This document shows, one piece after another, positions 7,030-47,814 of a stretch of 64,000 bases of DNA. Each line of letters begins with the position of its first letter. The first letter of the stretch is position 1. The DNA comes from a virus (lineage: Duplodnaviria > Caudoviricetes). The DNA lies in IMG/VR virus record IMGVR_UViG_3300037418_000840; one strand, 5' to 3'. Under the pieces are notes generated by a model, which saw only the letters and a list, made by a program, of their open reading frames with translations, did no database searches and was not told the DNA's origin. The position numbers and the translations under genes are program-made.

Positions 7030-9732
7030 TCAGGCCTCAATGTTACGGACACGTCGCTTCGTGGCAGCGACTTCCCTGATCGCATCAGACAGCGGACCAA
7101 GTCTCGAGATGTTGCGCTTCTTCTCAGCGACTTTGGACGCTACCTTCTTGGTCTCTGTGGTTCGTGTGCTAACTTTCCGCGCAGGAACCTTCTTGGCAGC
7201 TACCCGGCCTTTCTTTTTACTGCCCTCGCCGTCGTCCTCCTCTTCGCCACCGACAGCGTTCTCCGGGAGACCGAAGGCTTTGCGGCGATACTGCACGTCC
7301 TCGTTCATCAGACGGACAAAGTCCACGTGGTCATCTTGCTCCAACGCCTTGATCTGAATCAGACGACGGGTCTGCGGATCCATCGCCATGATGCGCATCA
7401 GACTGGCGTCAAGCTCACCCCAACCCTTGACGTGGTTGATGGTGGTCGATGCCGGAGCCTTGAGCTTCTTCAGCTTGGCTTGGACCTCGGACAGCGTGGA
7501 CCCGGTGACCAGTGATTCCTTGTACTCGGCGTAGAACTCTGGGCTATCCGCCACGTAGACCATGCCACGTTCGAACAGGCCGGGCACATGCTTGTAGATC
7601 AAGGACAGACACAGACTGTTGATGTGACAGTTACTGGATACGACACCTGACGGCAAAACGAAGTGATGGTAGCGCGGGACCGTCAGACAGTAGACGGGCA
7701 CCGGTTGATCCAACTGCTGGATCCGCATCTTCGATACGGGGGCAAAGCCCAGACGCGTGCGATAATCACACGATGACCGGTCCTTGGTCCCACTAGCCGC
7801 CGGACAGTACACTCGGTCCCCAACCTTCAGGTCCTTGGCCTTGACGTACACCAGATCGTCACTGCCCGGGAATTCCGTCGTGTCCCGACCGTACATAGCT
7901 TCGGTCTTAAGACAGACCCAACGATGTTCCAGGCTCACCTTGTATTTGGCCTTGCCCAAGTCAAGAGCCACCAACTGATCGACGTTGCGTTCGAGGCGCG
8001 CCGTCGCATCGGCCCAGATCTCCTTGCCGTCGTGGAACACGGGCACACGGAACTGTTGATCCAACAGTTCGTCAATTCGAGTGGGGCTCATTTCGTGCCA
8101 GGACACGCCGTCCATGCTGCGTTGCTGCATGATGCGGATCTTCGTCTCACCAATGAACGGGCCGTCCGGGTCCGGGTCAGCCAGCAGGATGAGCTTGCCC
8201 ATCGTCAGTTTGGAGTACGCGTCGGCGGCCTTCGGATCAAAGCCCATCGCCGCCAAGATGTAGATGATTTCATCCGACGACGTGGCCGTACCCTTCGGGT
8301 CCTTGAGCGCGTTCTTGATCTTCCCCTTCAGCGGGAGGATCGCCTGATACGGGAACCGTGCTTCTTTGGCCGTGCCACCCGCCGAGTCACCTTCGACCAG
8401 GAACAGTTCGCGATCGCTGATCTTGACTCGGGGATCGAACGATGCGTACTTGGCAGGCAGACCACCGCGTTTCACCGCGTTGAGCTTGGACGCCGCAGCC
8501 TTACTGATCGTGAACTTGTTCTTCAGTTCAGCGATCTTGGTGGCCTTGTCGCAAATGCGCTGCGCCATCGCCTTGTTCTCTTTGAAGAACTTGGTCGTGG
8601 CCGCCACCAGCTTCTTGCGCAGGTCGGTGCCCATCCGCTCGTCCGAGAGATAGACCTTGTCCTGCGAGTTGAACTTCGCCTTGTGTAATTTGGCGTTGAC
8701 GATACCGACCAGACCCTCTTTCAGATCAGCGGCAGAGAACGCCAGTATGTCTTTCTTCTTGACCTTGCGTGTCTTGATGAACGGCCGCAGACCATCGTAC
8801 AGTGCAGCGATCACCGAGTCGACGTGTTTACCACCCTTGCTGTTGTGGCTGCCGTTGGTGAACCCGCGCAGATCGCACTCGGTGTAGCCGGAGAAGGCAA
8901 CTACCACGTCACAAGCGTTGGGATCTCCGTGTTCCGACTTGTATTCGAACATCACGCGCTCGGCACCTACACCAAACTTCTCGAGTCGCTTATGCACGTA
9001 CTCGACAACACCGGTCTTCGACAGGAACTGGCGCTTACCCTTCGGCGTCGAGATCAGAATGGCGACGCCGGGATTGAAGTACGACATGATCTCCGCCCAC
9101 TCGACTGCCAGTTGGCCTGGGAACTTGTCGGTGCTGAAGATCGACAGATCGGGTTTGACATGGATCAGCGTCCCACGCTTCGCCACCTGACCGTTCGGTC
9201 CCTTCGGAGCCTTACACTTGGCAACCGGAGTGACGAGCTTGCCCTTCTTGAAGCCGACGGTGTACCATTGGCCTTCGTAGCAAGTCCACACCGTGAAGAA
9301 TTCGGCAGTCGCATTCGTGCCCTTGGCACCGATACCGTGAGTCCCGATCGAGACTTCGTACGCCGTGTTGTCGTACTTGCCCGACGTGTGTAGCGCACCG
9401 AACACCGACTGCATGGTCGGCATCTTGTTCACCACGTCCTTGCCGTTGACATGGATCGTGGTCTTGGTGATACCCTGCGGAATCCCGTGGCCCGCGTCTT
9501 GTACCCAGAAACTGCCATCCTTGTCTACGTGGAGAAGGACTGCCGTGTTGCGACCGGCTAGAGCTTCGTCCAGGCCGTTGTCAAGCAGTTCCTTGACCAC
9601 CATCCATAGACCGTAGCTGTCCGTGCCCCCGATGTACTGACTGGCGTTACGCCGGACGCTGTCAGGAAAGACCAGCGTCTTGATGTTCGCGGCCGTATAG
9701 TTGACCTTGGCCTTAGTCGATTTGGTTGCCAT
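7030..9732 (-). CDS. gyrB: type IIA topoisomerase subunit B (GyrB/ParE-like) with intein
   Basis: ELLDNGLDEA, DAGHGIP, GTHGIG (GHKL ATPase); LVEGDSAGG, PLKGKI, DPDPDG..HI, KGWGE (TOPRIM). Confidence 0.93.
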   Translation of the reverse strand: MATKSTKAKVNYTAANIKTLVFPDSVRRNASQYIGGTDSYGLWMVVKELLDNGLDEALAGRNTAVLLHVDKDGSFWVQDAGHGIPQGITKTTIHVNGKDVVNKMPTMQSVFGALHTSGKYDNTAYEVSIGTHGIGAKGTNATAEFFTVWTCYEGQWYTVGFKKGKLVTPVAKCKAPKGPNGQVAKRGTLIHVKPDLSIFSTDKFPGQLAVEWAEIMSYFNPGVAILISTPKGKRQFLSKTGVVEYVHKRLEKFGVGAERVMFEYKSEHGDPNACDVVVAFSGYTECDLRGFTNGSHNSKGGKHVDSVIAALYDGLRPFIKTRKVKKKDILAFSAADLKEGLVGIVNAKLHKAKFNSQDKVYLSDERMGTDLRKKLVAATTKFFKENKAMAQRICDKATKIAELKNKFTISKAAASKLNAVKRGGLPAKYASFDPRVKISDRELFLVEGDSAGGTAKEARFPYQAILPLKGKIKNALKDPKGTATSSDEIIYILAAMGFDPKAADAYSKLTMGKLILLADPDPDGPFIGETKIRIMQQRSMDGVSWHEMSPTRIDELLDQQFRVPVFHDGKEIWADATARLERNVDQLVALDLGKAKYKVSLEHRWVCLKTEAMYGRDTTEFPGSDDLVYVKAKDLKVGDRVYCPAASGTKDRSSCDYRTRLGFAPVSKMRIQQLDQPVPVYCLTVPRYHHFVLPSGVVSSNCHINSLCLSLIYKHVPGLFERGMVYVADSPEFYAEYKESLVTGSTLSEVQAKLKKLKAPASTTINHVKGWGELDASLMRIMAMDPQTRRLIQIKALEQDDHVDFVRLMNEDVQYRRKAFGLPENAVGGEEEDDGEGSKKKGRVAAKKVPARKVSTRTTETKKVASKVAEKKRNISRLGPLSDAIREVAATKRRVRNIEA
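7630..8160 (-). mobile_element. class 3 mini-intein (177 aa, Pro1, no homing endonuclease)
   Basis: PFIGETKI...SLEHRW...VYCLTV...GVVSSN|C interrupts DPDPDG|CHI. Confidence 0.85.
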
Positions 9733-10598: not shown

Positions 10599-10912
10599 TT
10601 GCTAATCTCCGGTGGAGTTTCCAATGCTGTGTAGAAGCGCTCACGGAACGCTTCGGTCTCTTTGGCTACCAAAGCCATGACGCGTGCTTCTTTCTCTGCG
10701 TCACGCTTCTGTCGTGCCCTTCGCACTTGCTCGGCAAGACGATAGGCTCGGCCCACGACTACTATCTGAACGCCACGCGCAGGACAGTACCGATTGCCCT
10801 TGCTGAAGTGACAGTTGACGAACGCCGTCTTCTCAGCAGGGTCCAGATGCTGGCACTTCTTGCACTTGGTCGAGTACAAAGCTAGGTAATCTCGATTGTC
10901 ACGCTTGGACAT
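10595..10912 (-). CDS. small Cys-rich (putative Zn-binding) protein
   Basis: CKKC...CHF...C; 4-nt overlap with next gene. Confidence 0.65.
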   Translation of the reverse strand: MSKRDNRDYLALYSTKCKKCQHLDPAEKTAFVNCHFSKGNRYCPARGVQIVVVGRAYRLAEQVRRARQKRDAEKEARVMALVAKETEAFRERFYTALETPPEISK

Positions 10913-11033: not shown

Positions 11034-11948
11034 TTAGAACAGGACTTCGTCGTCGTCCGACTCTTCGTCGTCTTCGTCTTCGTCCTCGTCTTCTTCCTCT
11101 TCCTCTTCTTCGTCTTCTTCGACCTTGCGCTTACCCTTCTTGCCCTTGGCCGGCTTGCCCTTGCCCTTGCCGCGACGGGGAGCTTCTTCCTCTTCTTCTT
11201 CCTCCTCGTCTTCCTCTTCCTCTTCCTCCTCTTCTTCGTCTTCGTCGTCTTCGTCCTCGTCTTCCTCGGACTCGTCGTCTTCCTCTTCTTCGTCCTCGTC
11301 CTCGTCGTCCTCGGACTCGTCGTCCTCTTCCTCTTCGTCTTCGTCGTCTTCCGACTCTTCTTCGTCCTCGTCTTCCTCGGACTCGTCGTCTTCCGACTCC
11401 ACCGCATCACCGGCGCTGCCAGCCGACACCAGGACCGATGCCGGGTCGAGGGCGATGACCGGGCCGTTCTCCGTGATGTAGATGACCACACCCTTCTGCT
11501 CCGTCACTTCCTGGACGGTGCCCACGGGGATCAGCACCTCGTGGTAGATGGTCTCGCCGACGACGGCCTTGACCTTTTGACGCGGAATGATTTCGCCGTT
11601 GATGCCGAAGTACGCAGCGGGAGTCGGCTTCTTGTCCGTGTCGGCACGCGTCGTCGTCACGATACGGAGGAACACCATCGAGCCGGCGGCAGTGGACTTC
11701 GCTTTCGGCGTTGCCTTGGCTTTGGCGGTCTTGCCGCGCGCAGGCTTCTTCGCGGTCTTCGCAGCGACGGCAGCCTTCTTCTTGGCGGCGAGCGCCGCGC
11801 GCTTCTTCGCAGCGAGGGCCTCGGCCTTCTTCGCGTTCGCAGCGGCTGCGCCACGAGCGCCAGCGCGTTTCGCTGCTACCTTCTTGGCGACGGGTTTCTT
11901 CGCTGCGACACCTTTCTTCGCGCCTGCCTTCTTCGTGGAGATTGCCAT
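11034..11948 (-). CDS. bipartite protein: Lys/Ala-rich N-terminus, very long Asp/Glu-rich C-terminus
   Basis: about 60 near-continuous D/E residues, then a basic patch, then more D/E. Confidence 0.8.
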   Translation of the reverse strand: MAISTKKAGAKKGVAAKKPVAKKVAAKRAGARGAAAANAKKAEALAAKKRAALAAKKKAAVAAKTAKKPARGKTAKAKATPKAKSTAAGSMVFLRIVTTTRADTDKKPTPAAYFGINGEIIPRQKVKAVVGETIYHEVLIPVGTVQEVTEQKGVVIYITENGPVIALDPASVLVSAGSAGDAVESEDDESEEDEDEEESEDDEDEEEEDDESEDDEDEDEEEEDDESEEDEDEDDEDEEEEEEEEEDEEEEEEEEAPRRGKGKGKPAKGKKGKRKVEEDEEEEEEEDEDEDEDDEESDDDEVLF

Positions 11949-40129: not shown

Positions 40130-40207
40130 GCCCCGTTAGCTCTTAATTGGCAGAGCAGCGGATTTGTAATCCGAGGGTTGGGAGTTCGAGTCTCTCACGG
40201 GGCACCA
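40130..40207 (+). tRNA. tRNA-Thr(UGU)
   Basis: cloverleaf, loop TTTGTAA, ends ACCA. Confidence 0.92.
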
Positions 40208-40224
40208 TTCATCTAGAGGACATC

Positions 40225-40560
40225 ATGGCCAAGGTCAGCGTCAAAGGCACGTTTCACAAACAGGTCGAGGTCACACTCCCCGAATCGGAACTAGTCGATC
40301 ACGTGAAGGCCATCGTACGGCGACATCATAACATTCGTGAGGGCGATTTCCTTCGCGGAAACACGGTAGTCTACGATGATCCCGATCACCGACATGGTTC
40401 GATCCGAGAACTAGAACGTGGTCCAGCGTCTGAACTCCAGCTTCTCGGATTCCAGATCCTGGACTATCTTGGAAAGTTGAATCTCGTTCTCACGTCGGAA
40501 GAAAACCGGTCGATCATGGACTACGTACCGGGCCTACGCCGCCCCCAGTCCCCAATTTAA
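40225..40560 (+). CDS. hypothetical protein
   Basis: GAGGA RBS. Confidence 0.6.
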   Translation: MAKVSVKGTFHKQVEVTLPESELVDHVKAIVRRHHNIREGDFLRGNTVVYDDPDHRHGSIRELERGPASELQLLGFQILDYLGKLNLVLTSEENRSIMDYVPGLRRPQSPI

Positions 40561-40600
40561 CGTTCCTGTCGTTGCAGTAAATAGCACGGTAAGTCACGAA

Positions 40601-40676
40601 GCGAGCATACGTCAGTTGGTTAGACCACCGTCCTTCCAAGTCGGGAACCCGAGTTCGAATCTCGGTGCTCGCTCCA
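40601..40676 (+). tRNA. tRNA-Gly(UCC)
   Basis: loop CTTCCAA, ends TCCA. Confidence 0.9.
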
Positions 40677-40695
40677 TCCTTTCCGGGAGCTTTAA

Positions 40696-40950
40696 ATGCC
40701 CATCTTGGGATCGACTCCGTGTTGCGACAATCATCTGTGTGTCTGGCTTGAGAACGAGAACGAAGTACTCGGTAAGTGGTACAAACACCAGTGCGAACAC
40801 TGTGGAACTTGGATCTTCACGCTTCTGTCGAATCTGAGTCCGGTGTCGTACACTGAGGAAGCGTTCAAGGCTGAATACGAAATCGATGAAGCAACGAAGC
40901 AGATCAAGAAGCGCGAATCATCCGAAGGACAAGTCACAAGCGTGCCGTAA
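40696..40950 (+). CDS. small Zn-finger-like protein
   Basis: CC...CEHC. Confidence 0.55.
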   Translation: MPILGSTPCCDNHLCVWLENENEVLGKWYKHQCEHCGTWIFTLLSNLSPVSYTEEAFKAEYEIDEATKQIKKRESSEGQVTSVP

Positions 40951-40966
40951 ATACGGTAAGCACAGC

Positions 40967-41041
40967 GCGGGCGTAGTTCAGTGGTAGAATTCTTGCTTGC
41001 CAAGCAAGAGGTCACGGGTTCGACCCCCGTCGCCCGCTCCA
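40967..41041 (+). tRNA. tRNA-Gly(GCC)
   Basis: loop TTGCCAA, ends TCCA. Confidence 0.93.
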
Positions 41042-41120
41042 AGTTTCACGAACGTTCGTTCTGTCGTTTCGACTTGTAAGGTCCCCGTCTGAATTGACGA
41101 ACGTTCCCTTTGTCTTCTGT

Positions 41121-41196
41121 TCCGCTTAACGCACAACGGTGTGCGGCCGGACTGTTAATCCGTGTGAGTCAGGTTCGATTCCTGAAGGCGGAGCCA
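41121..41196 (+). tRNA. tRNA-Asn(GUU)
   Basis: loop CTGTTAA, ends GCCA; A at position 8. Confidence 0.88.
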
Positions 41197-41222
41197 CCAA
41201 TTCCATCGTCAACGAGAACAAG

Positions 41223-41507
41223 ATGAAACTCCTCCCACTGTATGACCGAGTCCTTGTCAAGCCCCTCGACAAGAAAACCGAATCGGGTATCGTGATTGCC
41301 GGTTCGTCTGACCGAAACGATCAAGGCGAAGTCGTTGCCGTTGGTCCGGGTCCGATCCTCAACGACGGGACACAGAAGCCTCTGGCTGTCCAGGTCGGCG
41401 ACACCGTGATGTTCGTCCCTGGAACCGGTCATCCAGTGAAGATCGACGGCGAAGACATGCGTGTCTTCCCCGAGTTCGAACTCGTTGGCATCCTCCGCGA
41501 GGACTAG
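41223..41507 (+). CDS. groES: co-chaperonin GroES
   Basis: LLPLYDRVLVK...TESGIVI...GEVVAVGPG...VQVGDTV. Confidence 0.93.
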   Translation: MKLLPLYDRVLVKPLDKKTESGIVIAGSSDRNDQGEVVAVGPGPILNDGTQKPLAVQVGDTVMFVPGTGHPVKIDGEDMRVFPEFELVGILRED

Positions 41508-41509
41508 AC

Positions 41510-41947
41510 ATGAGCGGACGCCCGGTCAAGATTCTTCACCTAATGGTGGGTTCGGACAATTGGAAGCCGACACACGAGGAGTTGATTCAAGTAATTGAAT
41601 GCTTCGAATCAGCGTGCGAAGGCGGGAAGAAGTCGTTGTCTGCCGACGCAGCGGCCAAAGAAACAATGGTCGCAGTGGCAACGAATCACGAAGTGAAATC
41701 GGAAGTCCTTTCCATAACGGAAGACGATCCGATTTATGTTCTCGCCAACTTTGAATCACTTCGCGAGACAATTGCCCGTCGACTCCTCAACGAATTCTTG
41801 ATCGACTCGGCAACGCATCAACCGTTACCGCTCGATGCCTCGAAGGACACGGTGAATGGCTTCCATCTTTGCCTCAGCAATTTGAAGAAGCGAATTGAAG
41901 AACTCCTCGCAGAGGAGACGAAGGTTAGCGACAACAGACAGGCTTAA
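41510..41947 (+). CDS. hypothetical protein
   Basis: packed after groES. Confidence 0.6.
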   Translation: MSGRPVKILHLMVGSDNWKPTHEELIQVIECFESACEGGKKSLSADAAAKETMVAVATNHEVKSEVLSITEDDPIYVLANFESLRETIARRLLNEFLIDSATHQPLPLDASKDTVNGFHLCLSNLKKRIEELLAEETKVSDNRQA

Positions 41948-42018
41948 CCAGATACCGAAATTTCTGGTCTGTCCTGGGTCGTCAAAACCGGGAACCGCGT
42001 CTAGACGCGACCCGGCCT

Positions 42019-42095
42019 CGGAGCGTAGCGCAGCCCGGTAGCGCATCTGATTTGGGATCAGAGGGTCGCAGGTTCGAATCCTGTCGCTCCGACCA
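42019..42095 (+). tRNA. tRNA-Pro(UGG)
   Basis: loop TTTGGGA, ends ACCA. Confidence 0.93.
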
Positions 42096-42109
42096 GTTTT
42101 GTTTCACTT

Positions 42110-42271
42110 GTCCAGGATGCCAGAGTGGTTTAATGGTAGCTGAGTGGCCGAGTGGTGTGCGAGTTCCTGAAAGGAGCCGTAGTTCTAGACTGCGAGCCTT
42201 TAAACGGGGACGGCGGTGTCTCAGGCTGCCAGTCAAACACCCACGTAGGTTCGAATCCTACCCTGGACGCC
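42110..42271 (+). ncRNA. oversized tRNA-like RNA (about 160 nt)
   Basis: GTCCAGG/CCTGGAC acceptor, D arm and T arm enclose 107 nt; ends GCCT, no CCA. Confidence 0.7.
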
Positions 42272-42508
42272 TTATGAACGACGATTTGGTATTTGGATAA
42301 AGGGCACAAACTTGAATGCCGTGTGCGGCGAGAAGTGTGGTCCTCCAGCCTAGAATCGTCGTCCATAAGGCTTGACTTCTTAGGTGTGCGGGTTCGAGTC
42401 CCGATCGCTGGCCGAGACTATGGTAGACACAGCGGGCGGTAGCCACTCCGTCCGTGGAGCGCGCGGCCGGTGGGCCGTCCCTAAAAGACGGAACACCTAA
42501 GAGGTTAA
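42269..42508 (+). ncRNA. two long-stem RNA domains, the second with a T-arm-first tRNA-like core
   Basis: 17-bp and 16-bp closing helices, back to back. Confidence 0.6.
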
Positions 42509-42509
42509 G

Positions 42510-42716
42510 ATGAACAGTCCAAGTGCAGAGCAGGTTAGACTCTCACGAGTCCGAGCAGGTCTCACTCAGAAGCAAGCTGCTTCAGTTGTCTACGTCGGCG
42601 AACGTATGTGGCAGCGGTATGAAGCTGGGACATATGAAATGCATCCAGGACTGTGGGAACTGTTTCGTTACAAGGTCTTCCACGTTAGACCAGACCCAAT
42701 CACGGCTGGAGACTAG
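42510..42716 (+). CDS. XRE-type HTH protein
   Basis: RLSRVRAGLTQKQAASVVYVGERMWQRYEAG. Confidence 0.75.
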   Translation: MNSPSAEQVRLSRVRAGLTQKQAASVVYVGERMWQRYEAGTYEMHPGLWELFRYKVFHVRPDPITAGD

Positions 42717-42717
42717 C

Positions 42718-42972
42718 ATGACGACCATGAACGTACGAGACTTGATCTACGAGACTAAGGAATACGAAGGTCCTCTCAACCTTCCAGGAAAATCCATTGA
42801 ATGCCCCGAATGCAAGATTTTCTACGAGGCTAGTAAATGGAGTGCATGGGATTGCCCATGCGATTCATGCGGATCGCATCCAATCTTACTGTGTCCTGAG
42901 CGCCATACATTTGATCCGTATGGTGGAGATGACTTAGACTTGCAGGTCAAAGACGATGGCGTTGATCAGTAA
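42718..42972 (+). CDS. Cys-rich Zn-binding protein
   Basis: CPEC, CDSC, CP..H. Confidence 0.55.
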   Translation: MTTMNVRDLIYETKEYEGPLNLPGKSIECPECKIFYEASKWSAWDCPCDSCGSHPILLCPERHTFDPYGGDDLDLQVKDDGVDQ

Positions 42973-43138
42973 TCGAGAATTCTTCGATCCGGAATTCTAC
43001 CGGTTCATGCAGCAAGATTTCGAGGACATACGACGCAGACGTAAGCAACTGAAAGGACGACCCGATTCTGAACAGATGGCCGTCCTTGAATGTGAGCGTC
43101 AGTTCGAAGCCTTCTACAAGAAGTTCCTCGATTTGTAG
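42956..43138 (+). CDS. hypothetical protein
   Basis: packed ORF. Confidence 0.5.
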   Translation: MALISNREFFDPEFYRFMQQDFEDIRRRRKQLKGRPDSEQMAVLECERQFEAFYKKFLDL

Positions 43139-43142
43139 ATTT

Positions 43143-43230
43143 GGAAATGTGGCTGAGTGGGTTAAGGCAGCGGCGTGCTAAGCCGTCGAGTCGCGAGGCT
43201 CCGTTGGTTCGAATCCAACCATTTCCGCCA
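43143..43230 (+). tRNA. tRNA-Ser(GCU)
   Basis: long V arm, loop GTGCTAA, ends GCCA. Confidence 0.9.
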
Positions 43231-43327
43231 AGTAGTTCGTCTCTGAGGCGTTGGGTCAGCACCAACCGGCTCTCTCGTGGATACGAGGGGGCTGTGGTCT
43301 AGCGGTAAGGGCGCAGGGACGAACGCT
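43231..43327 (+). ncRNA. circularly permuted tRNA mimic (YrlA-like topology)
   Basis: order: closing stem, T-like arm, loop-closed acceptor-like stem, D arm, closing stem. Confidence 0.7.
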
Positions 43328-43333
43328 CGTTGA

Positions 43334-43421
43334 GGAAGCGTGGCTGAGTGGGTTAAGGCAGCGGTCTTGAAAACCGTCGTCGGGAAACCGGCCGTGAGTT
43401 CGAATCTCACCGCTTCCGCCA
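43334..43421 (+). tRNA. tRNA-Ser(UGA)
   Basis: loop CTTGAAA, long V arm, ends GCCA. Confidence 0.93.
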
Positions 43422-43492
43422 TTGTCGCAGTCTTCGTGTCACGCGTGGATAACAGGCATCCTGTGCTTGCCAAGTCGGACACGGAAATTCAC

Positions 43493-43560
43493 GGACCACT
43501 AACTCAGTGGTAGAGCGCCTCGTTAGAGGTTGGTCACGGGTTCGATTCCCGTGTGGTCCG
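43493..43560 (+). ncRNA. tRNA-like RNA with 4-nt anticodon loop, no CCA
   Basis: canonical D and T arms; GCCTC-GTTA-GAGGT. Confidence 0.7.
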
Positions 43561-43603
43561 TGTCACCGATTCAAGATGGTGTAGTAAATACTAAGGTAAC
43601 GTC

Positions 43604-43689
43604 GGACGTGTAGTGTAAGTGGTCAAAACCAGTGGACTGTAAATCCGCCGCCTCGTGCTTCGTAGGTTCGAATCCTACCGCGTCCACCA
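43604..43689 (+). tRNA. tRNA-Tyr(GUA)
   Basis: loop CTGTAAA, ends ACCA. Confidence 0.9.
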
Positions 43690-43718
43690 CTTCCTTAGAC
43701 TAGTTAGAAATCTTAGAT

Positions 43719-43792
43719 GCGGCCGTATCTCAATGGTAGAGACCCGGATTGTGATTCCGGTTACGTGAGTTCGATTCTCACCGGTCGCCCCA
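43719..43792 (+). tRNA. tRNA-His(GUG)
   Basis: loop TTGTGAT, C73-CCA; T rather than G at -1. Confidence 0.9.
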
Positions 43793-43827
43793 TAGGCCAC
43801 GAAGGCGGTCGCATCTAAGATTTCTGT

Positions 43828-43904
43828 AGCGGGATAGAGCAGCTAGGTAGCTCGTCGGGCTCATAATCCGAAGGTCGGAGGTTCAAATCCTTCTCCCGCA
43901 ACCA
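43828..43904 (+). tRNA. tRNA-fMet(CAU)
   Basis: 1:72 mismatch, loop CTCATAA, initiator-like D arm. Confidence 0.88.
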
Positions 43905-43913
43905 CCGTGTTGT

Positions 43914-44037
43914 GATCGCACTAAGGTCGTAGGAATGGACTAATCATCCGGACCCCAATTTCCATGGCCGCGCAGTAACCTCGTTACTGAGCCGTCTGGT
44001 GGTGTAGACCTGTCGGGAACGTGTTCCCGACGCGATC
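43914..44037 (+). ncRNA. unassigned multibranch structured RNA
   Basis: GATCGC/GCGATC closing stem plus several perfect hairpins. Confidence 0.4.
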
Positions 44038-44066
44038 AGCCTTTAGCTGTAGATTGTGAGGTCTTC

Positions 44067-44258
44067 ATGGACGCTCAACAGTACAAAAGCGCTATAGACG
44101 CGCTCCAGGACGGACCTCAATTGGTGCCTCGTACAGTAATCTACGACGGAGTTCTTTACGAACGTCGTCCTACGATAAGTGTGTGCTGGACCCCGAATGA
44201 TGGTTGGTCTGTCAAAGAGTACGACAAGATCGAGACTCAAAGTTTGAAGGCGTCATAG
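44067..44258 (+). CDS. hypothetical protein
   Basis: GAGG RBS; stop overlaps tRNA-Asp 5' end. Confidence 0.5.
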   Translation: MDAQQYKSAIDALQDGPQLVPRTVIYDGVLYERRPTISVCWTPNDGWSVKEYDKIETQSLKAS

Positions 44259-44325
44259 AACAATTGGTTAGTTCACCGGCCTGTCACGCCGGAGGTTACG
44301 GGTTCGAGTCCCGTTGACGTCGCCA
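44249..44325 (+). tRNA. tRNA-Asp(GUC)
   Basis: loop CTGTCAC, ends GCCA. Confidence 0.93.
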
Positions 44326-44384
44326 GTTAAACGGCGCGCGAATGGACATGCCAGTCCATGGTTTGAAACTTCGCTCGGCGTTTC

Positions 44385-44472
44385 GGGTGAGTAGTTCAGT
44401 GGTTAGAACACGGGCGACGCCTTCTCCGGTAGAAATCGCCTGAGGTCGTAGGTTCGAATCCTATCTCACCCA
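44385..44472 (+). ncRNA. tRNA-like RNA with elongated anticodon arm, no CCA
   Basis: GGGTGAG/CTCACCC acceptor; 7-bp stem around an 18-nt insert. Confidence 0.7.
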
Positions 44473-44563
44473 TCTTGTTTCAATGGGACAGCATTCTGAT
44501 TGGTCAGCCATCGGCGTCTGTGTTGACGCAACGTGCGGACACAAGAGGAGTGCGGTCCCGCCC

Positions 44564-44641
44564 GGGACCGTAGCTCAACGGATTTAGAGTAGTGGCCTAC
44601 GAAGCCATTGGTTGGGGGTTCGAATCCCTCCGGTCCCACCA
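44564..44641 (+). tRNA. tRNA-Arg(ACG)
   Basis: loop CTACGAA, ends ACCA. Confidence 0.92.
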
Positions 44642-44653
44642 TTCATGCAGTAC

Positions 44654-44730
44654 AGTGGGGTAGCTCAGACGGTTAGAGCGTTCGCTTGATAAGCGAGAGG
44701 TCGGAGGTTCGACTCCTCTCCTCACTACCA
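44654..44730 (+). tRNA. tRNA-Ile(GAU)
   Basis: loop TTGATAA, ends ACCA. Confidence 0.92.
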
Positions 44731-44738
44731 AGAAGTCC

Positions 44739-44814
44739 GGACAGGTAACTCAGTTGGTAGAGTGCTAGACTGAAAATCTAGTGGTCGCTGGTTCGATTCC
44801 AGTCCTGTCCACCA
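44739..44814 (+). tRNA. tRNA-Phe(GAA)
   Basis: loop CTGAAAA, ends ACCA. Confidence 0.93.
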
Positions 44815-44853
44815 AGTTGTTTCAGTACCGTGTAGTAAATAGGTTGTGTCTGT

Positions 44854-44932
44854 TGGGGGTTAGCCAAGTCCGGTCCAAGGCAGTTGGTTTTGATCCAACC
44901 ATTCACAGGTTCGAATCCTGTACCCCCTGCCA
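44854..44932 (+). tRNA. tRNA-Gln(UUG)
   Basis: loop TTTTGAT, ends GCCA. Confidence 0.88.
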
Positions 44933-44943
44933 CTCACTCCTGT

Positions 44944-45018
44944 GTGTGATTCGTCTAGCGGTTAGGACACTGCCCTTTCACGGCGGTAACACGAGTTCGA
45001 ATCTCGTATCGCACGCCA
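44944..45018 (+). tRNA. tRNA-Glu(UUC)
   Basis: loop CTTTCAC, ends GCCA. Confidence 0.92.
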
Positions 45019-45042
45019 TTCATTGATTCATCGTTTCATGCA

Positions 45043-45118
45043 GGGGCTTTAGTTCAGCTGGTAGAACAGCGGTCTCCAAAGCCGCGTGTCGGGAGTTCGA
45101 GTCTCTCAGGCCCCGCCA
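45043..45118 (+). tRNA. tRNA-Trp(CCA)
   Basis: loop CTCCAAA, ends GCCA. Confidence 0.92.
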
Positions 45119-45128
45119 CCGTTTTTAT

Positions 45129-45191
45129 AGGGCGTCCCAGTCGTAGTAGTGTCGAACCCCCGTCGGCGCTGCTCGGGGACGCCCTCTTTTA
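45129..45191 (+). terminator. long hairpin with U-tract ending the tRNA run
   Basis: AGGGCGTCCC/GGGACGCCCT followed by CTTTT. Confidence 0.55.
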
Positions 45192-45209
45192 TACCCATAG
45201 AGGTTCCAA

Positions 45210-45524
45210 ATGTCCGCCCAAGACGTGAACGTGCGTGAAGTGCCCGGCAACATCTCGATCCCTGACCTGAGTGATTATCATGGAACAGTCGCTGAACTGG
45301 AGCTCAGGGTAAATGCGCTAGCTCACGTATATGGTGGCGACTCAATCATCTCGTTCGACGCCGGACACAACAACATCGAAGCAGTGCTCGTAACTCGGGC
45401 CAGTATCGACGCTCACACGAAGGCCGTTCAAACCAAGGCCGAACGTCGCTCGTCCAAGAGGCGCGAGAAGCTGCAACGGCGCATCGCCGAACTTCAACAG
45501 GAACTGGAAGACCTCCATGACTGA
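45210..45524 (+). CDS. hypothetical protein
   Basis: GAGG RBS. Confidence 0.6.
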   Translation: MSAQDVNVREVPGNISIPDLSDYHGTVAELELRVNALAHVYGGDSIISFDAGHNNIEAVLVTRASIDAHTKAVQTKAERRSSKRREKLQRRIAELQQELEDLHD

Positions 45525-45717
45525 TGAAGTCTTGGTGTTAGAGGCGGCACTAAAGGCTCTGACCCGTAGATTCGACGAATTCGTGGGTCAGTGCATGGAC
45601 GATGCGGGAAAGCCGCGTGCGCCGTCGCCGAAGGCACTGGCCCAGGCTCGTGCCTGCCTTCCGCCTGAAACCACAAAGAACGGATACGCGTCTAAGTTCA
45701 AACCGGCGGCGATGTGA
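45517..45717 (+). CDS. hypothetical protein
   Basis: stop overlaps tRNA-Cys 5' end. Confidence 0.55.
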   Translation: MTDEVLVLEAALKALTRRFDEFVGQCMDDAGKPRAPSPKALAQARACLPPETTKNGYASKFKPAAM

Positions 45718-45784
45718 CTGAGTGGTCTAAGGTCCGGGTCTGCAAAACCTTGGTTCGTGGGTTCGAATCCCACCATCGCCTCCA
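45708..45784 (+). tRNA. tRNA-Cys(GCA)
   Basis: loop CTGCAAA, ends TCCA. Confidence 0.9.
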
Positions 45785-45792
45785 TACGTTGT

Positions 45793-45868
45793 GGGCCGTT
45801 AGCTCATTGGTCAAGAGCCGTGGACTCATAATCCACTGGTGACGGTTCGATTCCGTCACGGCCCACCA
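45793..45868 (+). tRNA. tRNA(CAU), probably Ile2 (lysidine type)
   Basis: loop CTCATAA; GGGCC acceptor with C4-G69 and C5-G68. Confidence 0.85.
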
Positions 45869-46980: not shown

Positions 46981-47814
46981 ATGGCACGACTCCCACGGCT
47001 CTACATTCCTGGTCAGGCACAGTACGTCATCCTGCAAACGATAGACGAACGTCCCGCATTCGTGAACGATTCCGACTACGAATTCTTCCTCGAATGTGTT
47101 CGAGACGCTGTGCCGGTGGCAGACATAGCAATTCATGCGTATGCTCTTCTGCCAAACGCCGTTCATATGATGGTCACACCTTCGACTGAGACGTGTCTGC
47201 CGCTATTCATGCAGACTGTAGGTCGTCGTTACGTGGCGCGTTTCAATCGCGAACACGGTCGGAGAGGCACCATCTGGGCAGGTCGTTATCGTGCGACGGC
47301 CATCGAGGGATCTTCGTGGGGTATCTTCGCCTATCAGTACATCGACAAGCTAGTGCCTCGTTCCGAGGCCACAGCCTTGAAGTCGACCCTTGGTCTTCAC
47401 ATAGGGATCGAAGGATCAACGTTCGTAGTTCATCGTCCAGAATATTGGGCGCTTGGAAATACGCCGTTCGATCGTCAACACGTATATCGCCTTATGTGCG
47501 ATCAGGAACTCGATCCGACTCGCATCGAACTGCTGATCGATGCGGCTACACGCGGCTGGGCTCTTGGTAGTCCTGAGTATCTAGCCTGGGCCGCCACGGT
47601 CGCCAATCGTCGAATCGGCAAGATGAAGCGCGGTCGCCCACGCAAAGATGGAACTCCGCGACAAGTTGACGTTCGTACAGTAGCGAAATCCAACGCTCCG
47701 GCTGTGTCAACGGTTAATCCGTCAACAACAGAGCAAGCACCCCGCGTTTTGAGCGTTCCAACTGTGTGGCCCACTTTCCCTTCTCTCCATGGACAATCAA
47801 ATGACGATCAGTAA
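46981..47814 (+). CDS. RAYT/Y1-type transposase homologue with degenerate HUH motif
   Basis: MARLPRL, HAY.L.PNAVH, MQTVGRRYV..FN, G..W.GRY, YWALGNTPF, RGRPRK. Confidence 0.8.
   Translation: MARLPRLYIPGQAQYVILQTIDERPAFVNDSDYEFFLECVRDAVPVADIAIHAYALLPNAVHMMVTPSTETCLPLFMQTVGRRYVARFNREHGRRGTIWAGRYRATAIEGSSWGIFAYQYIDKLVPRSEATALKSTLGLHIGIEGSTFVVHRPEYWALGNTPFDRQHVYRLMCDQELDPTRIELLIDAATRGWALGSPEYLAWAATVANRRIGKMKRGRPRKDGTPRQVDVRTVAKSNAPAVSTVNPSTTEQAPRVLSVPTVWPTFPSLHGQSNDDQ

Follow-up and report, generated by a model that had tools for sequence, protein, structure and literature searches.

The question raised by this locus is what kind of RNA is encoded by a stretch of about 160 nt which lies directly behind a tRNA-Pro gene in a phage tRNA array, and which has an acceptor stem, a D arm and a T arm around about 107 nt (42110-42271, + strand). 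The window, that is the whole stretch of DNA that was analysed, is 64 kb long and comes from a contig of about 231.6 kb found in soil and rhizosphere metagenomes. The source virus is a jumbo phage of soil. In its replication proteins it shares about 40% identity with the jumbo phages BcepSauron and BcepSaruman and with the Xanthomonas phage PhiXhv, phiRSL1 being more distant. The GroES-like protein of the phage is closest to the GroES of Burkholderia, Ralstonia and Caballeronia, which points to a probable host within the Burkholderiales. The genes of the window read normally under code 11.

The tRNA array occupies 40130-45868 on the + strand and includes 20 tRNAs called by ARAGORN and one extra tRNA found by Rfam alone. 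The CCA end is fully encoded in 19 of the 19 canonical tRNAs. The canonical set contains no tRNA for Leu, Lys, Val or Ala. The element is situated between tRNA-Pro and the remaining array, on the same strand as the tRNAs, and begins 14 nt past the CCA of tRNA-Pro, a spacing which is typical of the array members. The promoter and terminator scan of the + strand near the element gave nothing. An ORF of 277 aa with an IS200-like Y1 transposase domain (E 1e-5) is located just 3' of the array at 46981-47814.

The tRNA-type shell of the element was analysed and its parts are listed in Table 1. The sequence-only reading had described a perfect acceptor stem, a D arm and a T arm, and all the stems noted in it are present where it had placed them. 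The D arm, which it called Ser/Leu-type, is indeed of the Ser type, 16 of 18 positions being identical to the D arm of the T4 tRNA-Ser. This arm contains G18G19 and begins two nucleotides past the acceptor stem, as read from the sequence, with an ensemble pair probability of 0.13 for its stem and with A instead of the usual U at position 8. The discriminator G is also found in the two Ser tRNAs of the phage itself, while the T arm is identical to that of tRNA-Tyr at 43661-79. A shell-finder script, in which a T arm with a 7-nt strand and its complement 40-420 nt upstream were searched, was applied to both strands of the 64 kb. The only mismatch-free oversized match with a proper and correctly spaced D arm was 42110-42271. 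Allowing one mismatch gave many false matches, and the strict result alone was used. An acceptor partner for the T arm of the element at normal distance is absent. The shell is real and goes beyond chance. The element escapes ARAGORN in its default mode as well as Rfam: the tRNA model (RF00005) run on the whole element gave a local match to the T arm alone (14.4 bits, E 1.7), and the scan at gathering threshold, which is 29 bits for RF00005, gave no match to the element.

Table 1. Positions in the window of the parts of the element and of the neighbouring tRNA-like genes.
Feature	Position	Strand	Support or remark
tRNA-Pro(UGG), CCA encoded; neighbour directly upstream, context only	42019-42095	+	ARAGORN; Rfam 68.2 bits
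Acceptor stem, 5' strand GTCCAGG	42110-42116	+	7/7 Watson-Crick with 42262-42268; pair probability 0.99-1.00
D arm, Ser-type, GCCA-GAGTGGTTTAA-TGGT, 11-nt loop with GG	42119-42137	+	Sequence
Rod-shaped hairpin domain, 95 nt, in place of the anticodon arm	42139-42233	+	Folds alone to one hairpin
Rod tip CGTAG-TTCTAGA-CTGCG, the 'CUA' hairpin noted earlier; loop with palindrome TCTAGA	42178-42194	+	Pair probability 0.96-0.99
Unpaired 11-nt linker from rod to T arm	42234-42244	+	MFE structure
T arm GTAGG-TTCGAAT-CCTAC, 5/5 pairs	42245-42261	+	Pair probability 0.99
Acceptor stem, 3' strand CCTGGAC	42262-42268	+	Pairs with 42110-42116; X17 RNA-library contig stops at 42268
Discriminator G73 and CC, then T; encoded CCA incomplete	42269-42271	+	Sequence
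T-arm-bearing RNA with long closing helix, T arm GCGGG-TTCGAGT-CCCGA, then Leu-like D motif	42376-42502		Directly downstream
tRNA-like gene, anticodon arm cut down to CCUC-GUUA-GAGG (tetraloop)	43493-43560		Rfam alone, 43 bits
tRNA-like gene, 88 nt, anticodon arm a 7-bp stem with 18-nt loop	44385-44472		ARAGORN Gly(gcc)

The folding of the insert was examined alone and within the whole element. Folded alone, 42139-42233 gave a single rod with an MFE of -41.8 kcal/mol, which makes up 38% of the ensemble. The z-score of the rod was -3.27, with 1 of 200 shuffles being equally good, and that of the whole element was -2.71. In the whole element the pair probability was at least 0.96 for the acceptor stem, the T arm, the core helix and the tip hairpin, and for the core helix (GUUCCUG/CGGGGAC, 42163-69/42205-11) it was 0.98. 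The loop at the rod tip closes further, to a CUA triloop, in the MFE structure. The UUCC/GGAG inner hairpin that had been listed in the sequence-only reading fell to an ensemble probability of 0.01. A second Ser-like D motif, TGGCCGAGTGGT, is present inside the insert at 42145-56.

The base of the rod showed two competing registers. The register that keeps the D arm has a probability of about 0.13-0.19, and in the other, favoured one (about 0.7) UGGUAGCUGAG pairs with CUCAG-GCUGCCA and consumes the 3' strand of the D stem. This computed preference may understate the D stem, because energy models often underrate D arms, which are held in place by tertiary contacts.

The origin of the insert was searched for in the window and in genome collections. 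A mobile-element origin was considered and rejected, no second copy of the insert being found within the window. None of 185,579 species genomes contained a 20-mer taken from the rod tip, and no source of the insert is detectable in the window by the repeat search or in these genomes by the rod-tip 20-mer. The 19-mer of the D arm gave one match in bacterial genomes, at a non-tRNA place in an Acidobacteriaceae MAG, which was taken as chance. The Rfam search of the rod (42139-42233) gave no family.

The stretch of the element was found in sequencing runs of 14 studies, including four RNA libraries. Logan contigs were aligned to 41900-42600 from one DNA run and from three RNA runs, which belong to two studies. 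The RNA library X15 gave a 132-nt contig which corresponds to 42141-42260 with 0 mismatches and runs into adapter letters straight after 42260, and a second contig with adapter letters just ahead of 42128; from the adapter letters at the contig ends it was inferred that the library fragments are short. The contig of X17, which belongs to the other study, covers 42125-42268 and stops at the final base of the acceptor stem, and that of X16 covers 42065-42203, starting in the T arm of tRNA-Pro. The contigs of all three libraries traverse the insert, and none skips it. The word depth of the X15 contig was 209 against 13-15 for the adjoining phage contigs, depth being a poor gauge of expression. 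These contigs are consistent with an abundant unspliced RNA and are not taken as proof of it, because depth measures expression poorly and the libraries may contain DNA; neither transcription nor the ends, strand or level of an RNA can be established from contigs of this kind. The segment 42284-42379 was uncovered in all three RNA runs and two contigs end at 42260 and 42268, which gives at most a weak hint of the 3' end and was kept out of the evidence. The description of the locus as a tRNA-shaped gene with a large foreign domain replacing the anticodon and variable arms is borne out, and the domain is retained in the RNA-library contigs.

The element was also compared among relatives of the phage. 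Four other samples (L013-L016) contain it with 100% identity, which shows that it is not an assembly artefact. All 11 differences of L013/L016 fall within tRNA-Pro, with identity from 42063 on; they stem from a chimeric join with another organism and were rejected as sequence variants. The two closest divergent relatives are the GroES relatives L002 and L007, with DNA identities of about 94% and about 70-80%, and the contigs of both break inside tRNA-Pro. The nearest relative found to span the locus is L008 (236.9 kb), in which the HTH protein is 69% identical and the order is GroES, tRNA-Pro, 135 nt and HTH gene. L008 has no counterpart of 42110-42271 at the locus and nothing similar elsewhere in its sequence. 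This absence weighs little, because L008 is also without several ordinary tRNAs, namely the His, Met, Arg, Ile and Phe tRNAs of the window array. No orthologue with sequence differences was found, which leaves no variation for covariation or conservation analysis. The comparison of homologues proposed in the sequence-only reading thus gave identical DNA in four samples on one side, and on the other no divergent orthologue and absence from L008. Close relatives were sought in IMG/VR with two DNA patterns and with four flanking proteins (ORF145, GroES, the Y1 transposase and a 149-aa ORF in the wrong frame), with no match. The metagenome scan with the HTH protein returned unrelated HTH proteins alone (34-50% identity), and in a large protein database ORF145 had no relatives outside its own cluster.

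Further remodelled tRNA-like genes were found in the same array. In 43493-43560 and 44385-44472 the acceptor, D and T arms are kept and the anticodon arm alone is changed. The terminal stem of the former stretches to 10 bp, CCA is not encoded and the folding z-score is -3.7; the latter shows nothing unusual in its acceptor, D and T arms and likewise lacks an encoded CCA. The RNA at 42376-42502 is conserved in L008 (10470-10594, 76% over 128 nt), where it follows tRNA-Ser(GCU), and its core is 91% identical over 45 nt to an unannotated gap in the Xylophilus phage Lumi (L066, about 2495-2600). It has the look of an ncRNA family that is derived from tRNA and conserved. L008 also has oversized tRNA-like genes of its own, of about 114 nt, at 10707-10820 and 11373-11486. 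One of these carries a Leu-like D arm and two extra hairpins, and the other has a 10-bp tetraloop hairpin for an anticodon arm and ends with ACCA. The gene at 10707-10820 was tried as a homologue of the element, with TCTAGA and a few words in common with the insert; the alignment was weak and homology was not called.

Some smaller observations were made on the tRNA regions of these phages. Between tRNA-Thr and tRNA-Gly, 40372-40419 has a T-loop motif and is 83% identical to L008 8169-8216, with no tRNA called. The segment 43905-44050 (after tRNA-Met) has short words in common by eye with about 11140-11285 of L008 (after tRNA-Asp), blastn being silent, and the two may be another common ncRNA. 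The tRNA region of the Burkholderia phage BcepSaruman (L001) contains at 8858-8926 an unannotated element of 69 nt, which has a T arm together with a perfect 7-bp terminal stem and on which ARAGORN is silent. The palindrome TCTAGA is under-represented in the window (6 observed against about 12.6 expected). Its sites cluster in and around tRNA-like elements of both phages (window 41993-42006, 40212 and 42184; L008 10775, 11509 and 11589), and some of those in L008 resemble fragments of the tRNA-Glu D arm.

The explanation that we favour, with moderate confidence, is that the element is a gene for a stable, unspliced and non-decoding tRNA-mimic RNA of about 160 nt, which would be cut from the array transcript and which is comparable to T4 rnaC. 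It is one of several remodelled tRNA mimics of this array. It would be transcribed together with the array, and host RNase P would cleave its 5' end at G42110, because RNase P reads the acceptor/T minihelix and the elbow. The 3' end would be trimmed back to the end of the acceptor, and a CCA-adding enzyme could finish the CCA because CC is already encoded. The tRNA fold would shield the RNA from exonucleases and lead to its accumulation. In the most speculative step, a tRNA body that lacks any anticodon loop open to cleavage or decoding would be offered to proteins that read the elbow and the acceptor, and the RNA may act as a decoy or a scaffold, for example against host defence nucleases that target tRNA.

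The main rival is that the element is a relic, that is a tRNA-Ser-like gene which was recently disrupted by an insertion or rearrangement of about 95 nt in the anticodon/variable region and which would still be transcribed, processed and well folded without having a function. This is considered rather unlikely, and it carries weight of its own. The element is lineage-specific, being absent from L008, and shows no variation among samples, hence selection is not evidenced. The array is in flux and many of its tRNAs are not common to both phages. The insert contains tRNA-like scraps, namely the Ser-like D motif at 42145-56 and a loop of the T-loop type (UUC.A..) closed by a G-C pair, and such scraps would fit illegitimate recombination among tRNA genes. 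The A at position 8 and the missing A of CCA could be early decay. However, the shell is flawless, with 7/7, 4/4 and 5/5 pairs and with G18G19 and the T loop intact, and the anticodon region alone is altered. The insert is more structured than its shuffles (z-score -3.27), and it is without a detectable source in the window or in the 185,579 species genomes. At least two further members of the array have the same pattern, whereas random decay would strike all arms. That the elbow stays intact while the anticodon arm changes, as seen in these array members, is what argues most for selection of the element rather than decay.

An RNA that is charged was considered as another possibility. The element would then be a giant tRNA-like RNA which, after RNase P cleavage and CCA completion, is serylated by SerRS, and which sequesters SerRS, EF-Tu or a defence nuclease or delivers its aminoacyl group outside translation. 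Its acceptor end would be of the tRNA-Ser type, in view of G73 and the Ser D arm. SerRS reads the long extra arm and not the anticodon, and because of this it could serylate the element. Through the palindromic TCTAGA loop at the rod tip, two molecules could kiss. We regard this reading as improbable. If it is true, the element together with the other mimics would represent a phage strategy of anticodon-less tRNA bodies.

An intron-bearing tRNA is less probable still and is regarded as very doubtful. Here the insert would be removed to leave a working tRNA, such as the tRNA-Glu(CUC), interrupted between positions 32 and 33 by a 77-nt intron, that ARAGORN calls once introns are allowed. That fold, however, consumes the D stem and leaves a variable region of 15 unpaired nucleotides, the D arm is Ser-type and not Glu-type, and the array already contains a tRNA-Glu(UUC). 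Self-splicing tRNA introns are known with sizes well above 77-107 nt, and the earlier remark that the insert is too short for a group I intron was correct. No group I intron or other intron or ribozyme family was found with E up to 10, and a bulge-helix-bulge motif was not seen at the proposed boundaries. A spliced product could be missed, since mature tRNAs are under-represented in ordinary RNA-seq and rare variants are dropped by contigs. Splicing had been suggested earlier as something to be looked for in RNA data: the unspliced form was found, and no joint across the insert was seen in any of the three RNA libraries that contain this form, with the limit that their contigs, which cross the insert, may miss rare or very short forms.

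The sequence-only reading took CGUAG-UUCUAGA-CUGCG for a possible amber (CUA) anticodon hairpin and saw in the element a tRNA nested in a tRNA. As an explanation, the hairpin would serve as the anticodon arm either of the whole RNA or of an inner tRNA released from it. The hairpin does have a 5-bp stem, a 7-nt loop, U33, CUA and a purine at 37, and its pairs have probabilities of 0.96-0.99. However, it is the tip of a 95-nt rod and not a 5-bp stem stacked on the D arm, and it lies about 40 pairs off the tRNA core; therefore the distance from acceptor to anticodon cannot suit the ribosome. At the canonical place, directly past position 26, the rod is found and not a 5-bp anticodon stem with a 7-nt loop, and every split of the flanking letters that gives U33 and a purine at 37 costs the D stem. 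The CUA loop can close to a triloop, and it resembles a T loop in decay (UUC.A.., closed by a G-C pair) just as well as an anticodon loop. The nested tRNA is not supported by the folding either, the inner 95 nt being one rod and not a second cloverleaf; the inner sequence has no match to the tRNA model (109 nt searched, E up to 10) and the inner 'acceptor' has no T arm abutting it. TAG is a normal stop of this phage. It ends 3 of the 16 well-supported genes (the Dda helicase, GroES and the adjacent HTH gene, which include both neighbours of the locus) and 15 of the 78 long ORFs of the window, and nothing suggests that it is recoded. Decoding of amber codons, by the whole RNA or by an inner tRNA, is left with hardly any probability.

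The remaining candidates were rejected, namely tmRNA, for which the ARAGORN search (-m) was empty and pair 3:70 is C3-G70 and not G3:U70, and a Y RNA/YrlA, for which the motif is absent, Rfam gives no match, the ends of the element lie at the acceptor stem and no TROVE gene is found in the window ORFs scanned.

The phage tRNA arrays are usually annotated just for the output of tRNA finders, and an element such as this one is missed in that way, although it has the look of a purpose-built tRNA body that lacks an anticodon and is contained in RNA libraries of two studies. To our knowledge, the species 1 and 2 RNAs of T4, which occupy the same genomic niche, have gone fifty years without a known role. 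The stable mimic favoured here would be a second, unrelated and more tRNA-like example than those of T4, in a phage with several mimics, and it becomes testable whether tRNA-shaped RNAs are used by phages as decoys or scaffolds, such as in countering tRNA-cutting nucleases of the host. Even if the element is merely a disrupted gene, it still illustrates the turnover of tRNA arrays.

The element was compared with the known systems that it resembles. The tRNA-like domain of tmRNA shares with it an acceptor stem, a T arm and a long helix which exits the core at the site of the anticodon stem; the element differs in having no G3:U70, tag reading frame or pseudoknots, and a true D stem is possible in it. 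YrlA, the bacterial and phage Y RNA-like RNA bound by Ro60/Rsr, is likewise non-decoding and keeps the acceptor, D and T arms, but it is circularly permuted, with its ends at the would-be anticodon stem and its acceptor closed by a loop, whereas the acceptor ends of the element are open. YrlA also carries the Ro60-binding helix GNCGAA(N0-1)G (PMC4201824), a motif absent from the element, and no TROVE/Ro60 gene is found among the window ORFs scanned, which represent 64 of about 232 kb. The class II tRNA-Ser resembles the element in its D arm (16/18 positions for T4 tRNA-Ser), C11-G24, G73 and the long extra arm; in contrast, the element has one 95-nt arm for the anticodon and variable arms, A8 and no encoded CCA, and it fails the Rfam tRNA model.

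The closest known RNAs are rnaC and rnaD of the T4 tRNA cluster. The T4 species 1 RNA (rnaC) is a stable small RNA of 139 nt from the end of this cluster, its role being unknown (PMC3014915, PMC9697503), and rnaC is conserved in 728 phage records, whereas the element is known only from one phage. A blastn comparison of the element with the phage collection revealed no homology to rnaC, giving matches of the T arm and D arm to ordinary tRNAs alone. The terminal stem of rnaC has 2 mismatches in 7 and no clear D arm accompanies it, in contrast to the perfect acceptor and the Ser-type D arm of the element. Both are encoded in a phage tRNA cluster on the tRNA strand, both have a T arm (CCGGG-UUCGAAU-CCCGG in rnaC) adjoining a terminal stem in which the 5' and 3' ends are paired, and both enclose about 100 nt of hairpins. 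By analogy and not by homology, the element and the T4 species 1 RNA may be regarded as the same kind of thing.
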